The position numbers and the translations under genes are program-made. A DNA stretch of 64,000 bases from Escherichia coli (lineage in GTDB: Bacteria > Pseudomonadota > Gammaproteobacteria > Enterobacterales > Enterobacteriaceae). Below the pieces are notes generated by a model, which was given only the letters and a program-made list of their open reading frames with translations, was not told where the DNA came from and searched no databases. Below, in pieces: positions 40,751 to 41,197 of the stretch. Numbering within the stretch: position 1 is the first letter of the stretch; the number at the start of each line of letters is the position of its first letter. The stretch is from NCBI RefSeq assembly GCF_003334385.1, contig NZ_QOWN01000012.1; one strand, 5' to 3'.

Positions 40751-40792
40751 AAATTTCTCCTCTGTTGTTTATTTGATACCCATCACACTTTC

Positions 40793-40826
40793 ATCTCCCG
40801 GTTTTTTCGCCGGGAGATTTTCCTCA
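40793..40826 (+). terminator. intrinsic terminator after ubiI
   Basis: atctcccgg tttttt cgccgggagat stem-loop followed by a T-run. Confidence 0.5.
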
Positions 40827-40829
40827 TTT

Positions 40830-41197
40830 GAAATAAACTAATTTCACCTCCGTTTTCGCATTATATTTTCTAATGCCATTATTTTTTGATTTAGTGTTTT
40901 TTGACATTTTTTTAGCTCTTAATATTGTCTTATTCAAATTGACTTTCTCATCACATCATCTTTGTATAGAAACTGGTGTATTTTTTGGTTTTTTATTCTG
41001 TCGCGATTTTTGCATTTTTTAACCATAAGCTAATGTGATGATCAATTTTACCTTATGGTTAACAGTCTGTTTCGGTGGTAAGTTCAGGCAAAAGAGAACG
41101 ATTGCGTTGGGGACCGGGAGTGGCTCCGATGCTGGGTTTCGTGGTGATAATTTCACCATGAAAAAGTTGTCAGCCCCGCTTATTCAATGAGGACAAG
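40830..41197 (+). promoter_or_regulatory. gcvTHP promoter/leader region (AT-rich, multiple T-runs)
   Basis: Roughly 370 bp of AT-rich sequence with phased T-tracts between the ubiI terminator and the gcvT start; the gcv operon is known to be controlled by DNA-binding proteins acting over a long upstream region; individual sites not resolved here. Confidence 0.35.

Follow-up and report, generated by a model that had tools for sequence, protein, structure and literature searches.

The ubiI-gcvT spacer of Escherichia coli as the gcvTHP control region, and its conserved spacing across Enterobacterales

The spacer between ubiI and gcvT (positions 40751-41197 of a 64,000-nucleotide stretch of Escherichia coli DNA, referred to here as the window) is, with a probability of about 93%, the classical and already known control region of the glycine-cleavage operon gcvTHP. 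What doubt remains on this account concerns exact boundaries; the nature of the region is not in question. The open reading frame listing and the RefSeq annotation place ubiI (visC) upstream of the spacer (coding sequence 39548-40750) and gcvT downstream of it (plus-strand open reading frame 41198-42292, with its ATG at 41198), and the interval singled out by an earlier note on this DNA coincides exactly with the 447 bp that separate the ubiI stop from the gcvT ATG. RefSeq names ubiI, yqfI and gcvT here, and the flanking pair ubiI and gcvT is that of E. coli gcvTHP. A 647-bp query across the spacer is 100% identical to E. coli K-12 MG1655 and is present in exactly one copy in each of the complete E. 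coli genomes (5426 of 5426); the region is core genome and not foreign DNA. Set against the K-12 gcvTHP control region described by the Stauffer laboratory, with its regulators GcvA/GcvR, Lrp, PurR and CRP, it is the same DNA, and the PurR motif, the GcvA CTAAT motifs, the CRP-type site and the status as an Lrp target agree with what has been published for K-12, with no difference in kind. As a discovery this is minor: few E. coli promoters with several regulators are as well characterised, and the earlier note in essence re-derived the map of this one from sequence. The locus is useful as a control, in which a sequence-only reading correctly told a protein-looped promoter from a riboswitch leader. 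Additions beyond the literature searched are the length conservation of the Lrp segment over ~100 species of Enterobacterales, a step of ~11 bp in this length in Pectobacteriaceae and a covarying hairpin in the gcvT leader.

The gcvT promoter lies at 41051-41084 on the plus strand and combines a weak -35 element, CTTATGGTTAA (41051-41061), with an extended -10 element, TGgTAAGTT (41076-41084). The consensus over 101 species is CTTATGGTTaA for the -35 region and TGgTAA.TT for the extended -10. The poor -35, which is what one would expect of an activator-dependent promoter, is why a simple sigma-70 scan makes no call here. A near-consensus TTGACA-16-TATTGT at 40901-40928, within the Lrp region, was found by the sigma-70 scan and rejected as the main promoter; it is poorly conserved. 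The position of the extended -10 puts the start of transcription at about 41091-41092. We infer a start at ~41092 from this position together with the coordinates reported for CRP, GcvA and PurR. These coordinates and those reported for Lrp all fit a +1 at ~41092, which is an argument from consistency and no measurement.

A PurR operator, AAGAGAACGATTGCGT, occupies 41092-41107 (no strand assigned), or +1 to +16 of the inferred start; the PurR site of gcvT is presumably at -3/+17. A PurR-type box near the 3' end of the spacer had been noticed earlier, and it is real, about 2 bp away from where it had been placed. With four mismatches to the palindromic consensus ACGCAAACGTTTGCGT it is a weak match when taken alone, and five such matches occur in the 64 kb. 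The motif reported for the PurR ChIP-chip region of gcvT-gcvH-gcvP is the same 16-mer (Cho et al. 2011, PMC3159470). This identity to the ChIP-chip motif, and the keeping of the box in ~100 species, mark a PurR operator at the transcription start. Practically all of the 107 species have the box, most often in the form AAGAGAACGTTTGCGT, one mismatch nearer to the PurR consensus; over 101 species the consensus of the box is AAAGatAaCGTTTGCGTCG. In Yersinia pestis, deletion of purR raises both gcvT and gcvH (PMC10673613). Further downstream on the plus strand, the Shine-Dalgarno sequence GAGGA (41189-41193) and the gcvT start codon (41198-41200) are both invariant in the leader alignment.

The motif CTAAT occurs three times in the spacer, always on the plus strand, at 40838, 40870 and 41030, where 0.29 occurrences are expected. 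Every copy sits in a conserved block, which would give two GcvA sites far upstream and one at the -35 region. GcvA footprints are on record for two upstream stretches, one of 35 bp and one of 57 bp, with CTAAT common to both (Wilson 1995, as summarised in PMC5002191), and the same source gives the GcvA consensus as ATTAG-N5-CTAAT. The location of the three CTAAT copies in the three most conserved upstream blocks agrees with the 57- and 35-bp footprints. Putative GcvA site 3 (40821-40850, CTAAT at 40838-40842) is the most conserved block of the spacer, with the consensus TTTGAAAtAaTCTAATTTcAC over 101 species. Putative site 2 (40851-40878) holds an inverted repeat, ATTAT-N5-CTAAT at 40860-40874, which is an exact match to ATTA-N7-TAAT; its consensus over 101 species is TTTcGcATTA.tTTTTcTaAT, and it keeps a distance of 29 bp from site 3 in almost every species. 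Putative site 1 (41023-41058, CTAAT at 41030-41034) overlaps the -35 region. Within it CATAAGCTAATGTGATGA is 80-100% conserved in Enterobacteriaceae, where site 1 lies 196-197 bp from site 3 and to which its recognisable form is confined. None of the three sites is assigned to a strand, and a scan of the spacer for CTAAT-N7-ATTAG returned no match. We take the footprint limits of GcvA to be -271/-242 for site 3, -241/-214 for site 2 and -69/-34 for site 1; Wilson et al. are said to have placed the site 3 footprint at -271 to -242 in 1995.

A CRP-type site, TTTGATACCCATCACA (40772-40787, no strand assigned), lies between the ubiI stop and a hairpin. It reads TTTGA-N6-TCACA, with one mismatch to TGTGA-N6-TCACA, and three such matches occur in the 64 kb. 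The centre of this candidate is at about -312.5 from 41092, so that a CRP site is found ~313 bp upstream of the inferred start, in agreement with the CRP site that we take to be centred at -313 upstream of the gcvT start. In 1999 Wonderling and Stauffer reportedly placed a CRP site at -313. The right half of the site, ATCACACTTTC, is 70-90% conserved among 43 Enterobacteriaceae, and the distance from the CRP site to GcvA site 3 is constant at 59-60 bp across the family. An action of CRP on gcvT is described in work of Wonderling & Stauffer, as cited in PMC1905917. Scans for the regulators named in the earlier note yielded consensus matches for PurR, CRP and GcvA; for Lrp they gave one weak match to YAGHAWATTWTDCTR, at 40986-41000 with 3 mismatches, and with 0.41 expected this match is not above chance. 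The broader proposal of that note, a promoter under the joint control of regulators that bend DNA (Lrp, GcvA, PurR and CRP), agrees with the literature, the sequence and the comparative data.

Downstream of the CRP site and beginning 43 bp past the ubiI stop, a GC-rich hairpin with a 10-bp stem and a 6-nt loop occupies 40793-40818 on the plus strand. It dominates the centroid of the fold of 40745-40835 (91 nt; -15.1 kcal/mol, z -3.0), and 0 of 200 shuffles equal the native stability. The spacer had been said to begin with a clean terminator. The hairpin is indeed strong, but clean is too strong a word: its U tail, TTTCCTCATTT, is weak, and the terminator scan made no call at this hairpin. This is probably an imperfect intrinsic terminator for pepP-ubiH-ubiI transcription.

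Loci for comparison were collected from species-representative genomes with a degenerate DNA pattern for GcvT residues, which gave 120 Enterobacterales loci. Within the available flanks ubiI is upstream of gcvT in 91 of 119 loci examined, and the spacer is usually 300-560 bp long. When 43 Enterobacteriaceae spacers were aligned to that of E. coli, sharply bounded conserved blocks appeared at 40782-40792 (right half of the CRP site), 40825-40850 and 40853-40875 (GcvA sites 3 and 2), 41024-41041 (GcvA site 1), 41046-41062 and 41070-41090 (promoter) and 41091-41108 (PurR box), with a further block at the Shine-Dalgarno sequence. The mean identity to E. coli of the segment between GcvA sites 2 and 1 (40876-41020) is 38% (86 species), as compared with 30% expected from composition. 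In 95 of 107 species, 260-263 bp (mostly 261 or 262 bp) separate the core of GcvA site 3 from the PurR box. This distance grows to 273 bp in six Pectobacteriaceae (Brenneria, Pectobacterium and Dickeya) and to 275 bp in Lonsdalea; the step in Pectobacteriaceae amounts to ~11 bp, or about one extra helical turn. The flanks vary, with a leader of 54-219 nt between PurR box and ATG and an interval from the ubiI stop to site 3 ranging from -11 to more than 1000 bp. In 87 species the segment has stayed AT-rich, with more T than A and with a predicted peak of curvature near E. coli position 40971-40995 (~-120 to -100).

The fixed length from site 3 to the PurR box would fit the published loop of GcvA/GcvR and Lrp, and the pattern of the T-rich segment is as expected for a bendable spacer of fixed length and phase. 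Here a regulatory spacer loses nearly all identity across an order and keeps its length within 1 bp, shifting it only by roughly one full turn of the helix. Together these traits make a clean signature, left by natural variation, of looped DNA.

The description of the spacer as AT-rich holds, with a GC content of 0.358 against 0.518 for the window, and GC falls to 0.25-0.31 in 100-bp windows over 40800-41050. The plus strand shows a strong skew of T over A. Runs of T5-T7 had been claimed, and eight are present on the plus strand, starting at 40802, 40882, 40897, 40907, 40981, 40989, 41007 and 41015. Their density is 20 per kb in the spacer against 3.4 per kb in the window, about six times as high, and mononucleotide shuffling of the spacer yields eight or more in only 0.3% of cases. 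The run at 40802 forms the loop of the ubiI hairpin, and the other seven of the eight lie inside 40876-41020.

That these runs are regularly spaced, or phased, did not hold up. From 40882 on, the start-to-start distances are 15, 10, 74, 8, 18 and 8 bp, and the tract centres are without helical phasing at 10, 10.5 and 11 bp (Rayleigh p = 0.4-0.8). Fourier power of TT dinucleotides in the 10-11.5 bp band shows no excess over shuffles for the whole spacer (p = 0.69); within 40863-41000 it is borderline, with p = 0.014 at one period and 0.07 for the band. The repeats of ~10-11 bp that characterise phased A/T-tract bent DNA are absent from the spacer. The claim of curved DNA fared better, in that predicted curvature is higher at 40907 than at any other of the 64,000 positions and peaks again, above the 99th percentile, at 40965-40990. 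Curvature was predicted with a dinucleotide wedge model using Bolshoy/Trifonov parameters, sanity-checked on phased and unphased A6 repeats, and its profile serves for ranking only. The spacer DNA is thus predicted to be strongly curved with regular phasing not the cause, and because the T runs lack helical phasing this prediction rests on the wedge model and its parameters.

Composition and curvature of this kind could also be those of a generic silencer or upstream activating sequence for nucleoid proteins of the H-NS, Fis or IHF type, working through intrinsic curvature alone. Such a role would suit the highest predicted curvature of the window, the very high AT content, an Lrp consensus match that is not significant and a sequence between the GcvA sites that is almost free to vary. 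It accounts for the composition but leaves the invariant length with its step of ~11 bp unexplained; a strict length with a single jump of this size argues for a defined protein-protein geometry over generic silencing. The literature moreover gives Lrp a bending role at this locus (PMC13104608, PMC2374795), and the locus, which 5426 of 5426 E. coli genomes carry, belongs to the core genome and is not foreign DNA. We regard generic silencing as very unlikely.

The T-rich region also overlaps a gene. The 27-codon small-protein gene yqfI (40824-40907, minus strand) overlaps both distal GcvA sites (3 and 2) as well as the first part of the T-rich region, and the YqfI protein has been detected by chromosomal tagging (PMC6001520). 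One could suppose that the AT-rich stretch mainly serves to encode and express this antisense product, as yqfI is annotated, its protein is detected and it lies over the two upstream GcvA sites and the curvature maximum. Its open reading frame is intact in Escherichia only (E. coli and E. albertii), with an in-frame stop at codon 7 in Citrobacter and no ATG in other genera, yet the underlying DNA blocks are kept in 100 species despite these stops. The apparent conservation of the C-terminal two-thirds of yqfI reflects the GcvA sites, because it persists even in stop-bearing sequences, and the gene takes up under a fifth of the spacer. A primarily coding role is accordingly improbable in the extreme.

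Read in this way, the spacer would carry, from 5' to 3', the CRP site, the ubiI hairpin, GcvA sites 3 and 2, ~145 bp of T-rich curved DNA, GcvA site 1 over the weak -35, the extended -10, the PurR operator at +1 to +16 and a leader of 106 nt. We assign the T-rich segment at 40876-41020, which is AT-rich, rich in T runs, curved and of fixed length and has no strand, to Lrp on the strength of the literature, and its fixed length and conserved curvature lend support; the Lrp-bound segment upstream of gcvT is presumably about -229 to -92. Binding and further bending of these ~145 bp by Lrp may let the T-rich spacer of fixed length bring the upstream GcvA (~-270 to -214) to site 1 and RNA polymerase. 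Without glycine, GcvA together with GcvR would keep the loop in a repressing state. Glycine bound to GcvR would lead to release of GcvR and to activation by GcvA, which CRP-cAMP may assist. PurR, together with hypoxanthine or guanine, would occupy the start site and so add a modest repression. Published work has GcvA/GcvR and Lrp forming the repression loop, with Lrp assisting the bending of the DNA, and GcvA activating gcvTHP in the presence of glycine (PMC13104608); a role of Lrp in gcvTHP control is also supported elsewhere (PMC2374795). The assignments of sites to proteins and the loop model come from the literature (PMC13104608, PMC5002191, PMC3159470, PMC2374795, PMC1905917); locus identity, composition, curvature, the conserved blocks with their spacing and the absence of a riboswitch are observations made here.

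This arrangement resembles LysR-type looped promoters such as gcvA-gcvB, ilvY-ilvC and oxyR-oxyS, analysed in PMC5002191, which share inverted repeats of the ATTAG-N5-CTAAT type, one site abutting the -35 and DNA bending in the mechanism. In those cases the distal sites adjoin the proximal one, whereas at gcvT ~190 bp lie between them; a second protein, Lrp, would take up this interval of intrinsically curved DNA, and the regulator gene gcvA is not divergent from its target.

Glycine riboswitches precede gcvT in many bacteria (PMC13104608), and the AT-rich spacer could by analogy be a structured RNA leader, a glycine riboswitch or attenuator, acting after transcription has started. In favour of this, the final 106 nt form a structure (-42 kcal/mol, z -2.3) that includes a covarying hairpin. 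When both strands of 40300-41700 were searched against Rfam by cmscan, using permissive filters and a cut-off of E<=10, no glycine riboswitch (RF00504) came up. The Rfam scan of the whole window at gathering thresholds found none either, its only hits being 6S, SIB, naRNA4 and ES036, all elsewhere. Weak matches to RsaE, Yfr1 and ar15 were rejected, being far below threshold and only picking up the ubiI hairpin. The earlier note had predicted that a covariance-model search would be negative, and it is, even at E<=10. Against an RNA leader there are, besides this lack of a riboswitch or other credible Rfam match at E<=10, the extended -10 and the PurR box, which set the start at ~41092 so that the AT-rich 40850-41050 is not transcribed with gcvT; a leader length that is inconsistent between species (54-219 nt); and the lack of a U tract after either leader hairpin.

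According to published work, glycine induction of gcvT is abolished in gcvA or gcvR mutants. With no riboswitch and with protein regulators in place, glycine is therefore sensed by proteins, and control of gcvT by an RNA leader is highly improbable. The glycine riboswitches (RF00504) of Bacillus, Streptomyces, Neisseria and others sit before the same gene and respond to the same signal, glycine, which induces glycine cleavage; unlike at those loci, the spacer has no match in sequence or structure, and the GcvR and GcvA proteins sense at the DNA level. Calling the whole spacer a leader, as had been done, does not fit the promoter position: the AT-rich part is no leader because it is sited upstream of the promoter, and most of the spacer is upstream regulatory DNA, with only ~106 nt transcribed if the inferred start is right.

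The 106-nt gcvT leader itself folds into two hairpins. Hairpin 1 (41104-41132 on the plus strand, +13 to +41) begins its 5' arm in the 3' end of the PurR box and is strand-specific, with -16.8 kcal/mol (z -2.9) on the plus strand against -6.2 kcal/mol (z -0.5) on the minus strand. Across 27 Enterobacteriaceae leaders, 92.6% of cells are paired as compared with 38-53% in slid controls; four pairs show compensatory double changes, as many as six pair types occur at a single position, and G-U pairs are frequent. RNAalifold independently predicts the hairpin 1 helix from leaders of equal length. On a first mixed alignment that included Photorhabdus and Providencia it predicted almost nothing, because of misalignment, as the helix appears with equal-length leaders only. 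A covariance model of PurR box plus hairpin matches at the expected place in 59 loci (59 distinct sequences), with 88.9% of cells paired and seven pairs with double changes in an alignment that is itself fitted to the model. More distant genera fold a hairpin at the same place, and the version in Erwiniaceae often takes in the operator half CGUUUGCG.

Hairpin 1 is no obvious attenuator because no U tract follows it, and the literature searched yielded no description of a stem-loop in the E. coli gcvT leader. One may guess at a role in mRNA stability, in translation or as a protein-binding site. It is a speculative proposal, with the odds clearly against it, that hairpin 1 is an undescribed cis-acting post-transcriptional element of gcvTHP and that the 261-262 bp geometry with its step of ~11 bp is evidence of a rigid, phase-dependent loop of GcvA and Lrp. 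A 10-codon upstream open reading frame at 41158-41190 was considered and rejected, as its ATG falls within hairpin 2 and lacks conservation. Hairpin 2 (41137-41163, plus strand) has the form UUUCGUGGUGA-UAAUU-UCACCAUGAAA and folds with -14.9 kcal/mol (z -5.6). It is partly conserved, with 74% of cells paired and some compensatory changes, and is absent from leaders of the Cedecea type. The leader hairpin and the young antisense gene yqfI are cheap leads for those who work on gcvTHP.

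The distance between the core of GcvA site 3 and the PurR box was measured in the window (40831-41107) and in loci L002-L121, which come from species-representative genomes of Enterobacterales. Of 107 Enterobacterales species, 95 have a distance of 260-263 bp, while six Pectobacteriaceae have 273 bp and Lonsdalea has 275 bp. The intervening 145 bp show an identity to the E. coli sequence of only 38%, against 30% expected. The leader that adjoins this segment of fixed length varies from 54 to 219 nt among species. At the other end, the GcvA site 3 block overlaps the last 6-11 bp of ubiI in 15 species, and therefore leaves no room there for an E. 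coli-type CRP site and hairpin. Loci L002, L050 and L062 (Photorhabdus) are examples of this overlap.

GcvA sites 3 and 2 are also covered in antisense by an annotated small-protein gene, yqfI (27 aa, minus strand, 40824-40907), the product of which has been detected by tagging (PMC6001520). In our cross-species comparison, an intact open reading frame is restricted to E. coli and E. albertii, and no clear promoter was seen for yqfI. Judged from the sequences, the apparent conservation of yqfI elsewhere is conservation of the GcvA sites.

Within the spacer, the sequence that most resembles a sigma-70 promoter is TTGACA-16-TATTGT (10/12, plus strand, 40901-40928). It falls within the Lrp region, coincides with the curvature maximum and precedes the inferred gcvT start by about 190 bp. 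Its conservation is poor. This match may represent a cryptic promoter masked by Lrp.

An RNA hairpin with covariation was observed in the gcvT leader at 41104-41132 (plus strand), approximately +13 to +41, with a 5' arm that begins within the PurR operator. In the leaders of 27 Enterobacteriaceae, the fraction of paired cells is 92.6%; compensatory changes occur at four pairs, and G-U pairs are numerous. Folding of both strands showed that its stability is limited to the plus strand, and a hairpin is also observed at the same place of the leader in species across Enterobacterales. Rfam holds no family for the E. coli hairpin, and our literature search did not find it described.

A second leader hairpin (41137-41163, plus strand) is stable (z -5.6) and only partially conserved. 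It contains the ATG of a 10-codon upstream open reading frame (41158-41190, plus strand), the stop codon of which overlaps the gcvT Shine-Dalgarno sequence; this ATG is not conserved in the spacer alignment. Directly 5' of and including the Shine-Dalgarno sequence, we noted the stretch AGCCCCGCUUAUUCAAYGAGGA (41171-41197, plus strand), which is well kept in many Enterobacteriaceae and, in the leader alignment, more conserved than the mid-leader. Such a pattern could point to a translational or sRNA-pairing element.

Elsewhere in the window, an Rfam scan gave gathering-level matches, all on the minus strand, to 6S RNA (35699-35882), a SIB antitoxin RNA (34900-35050), naRNA4 (49393-49470) and ES036 (21787-21829). 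None of these RNAs is unusual for this segment of the E. coli chromosome.
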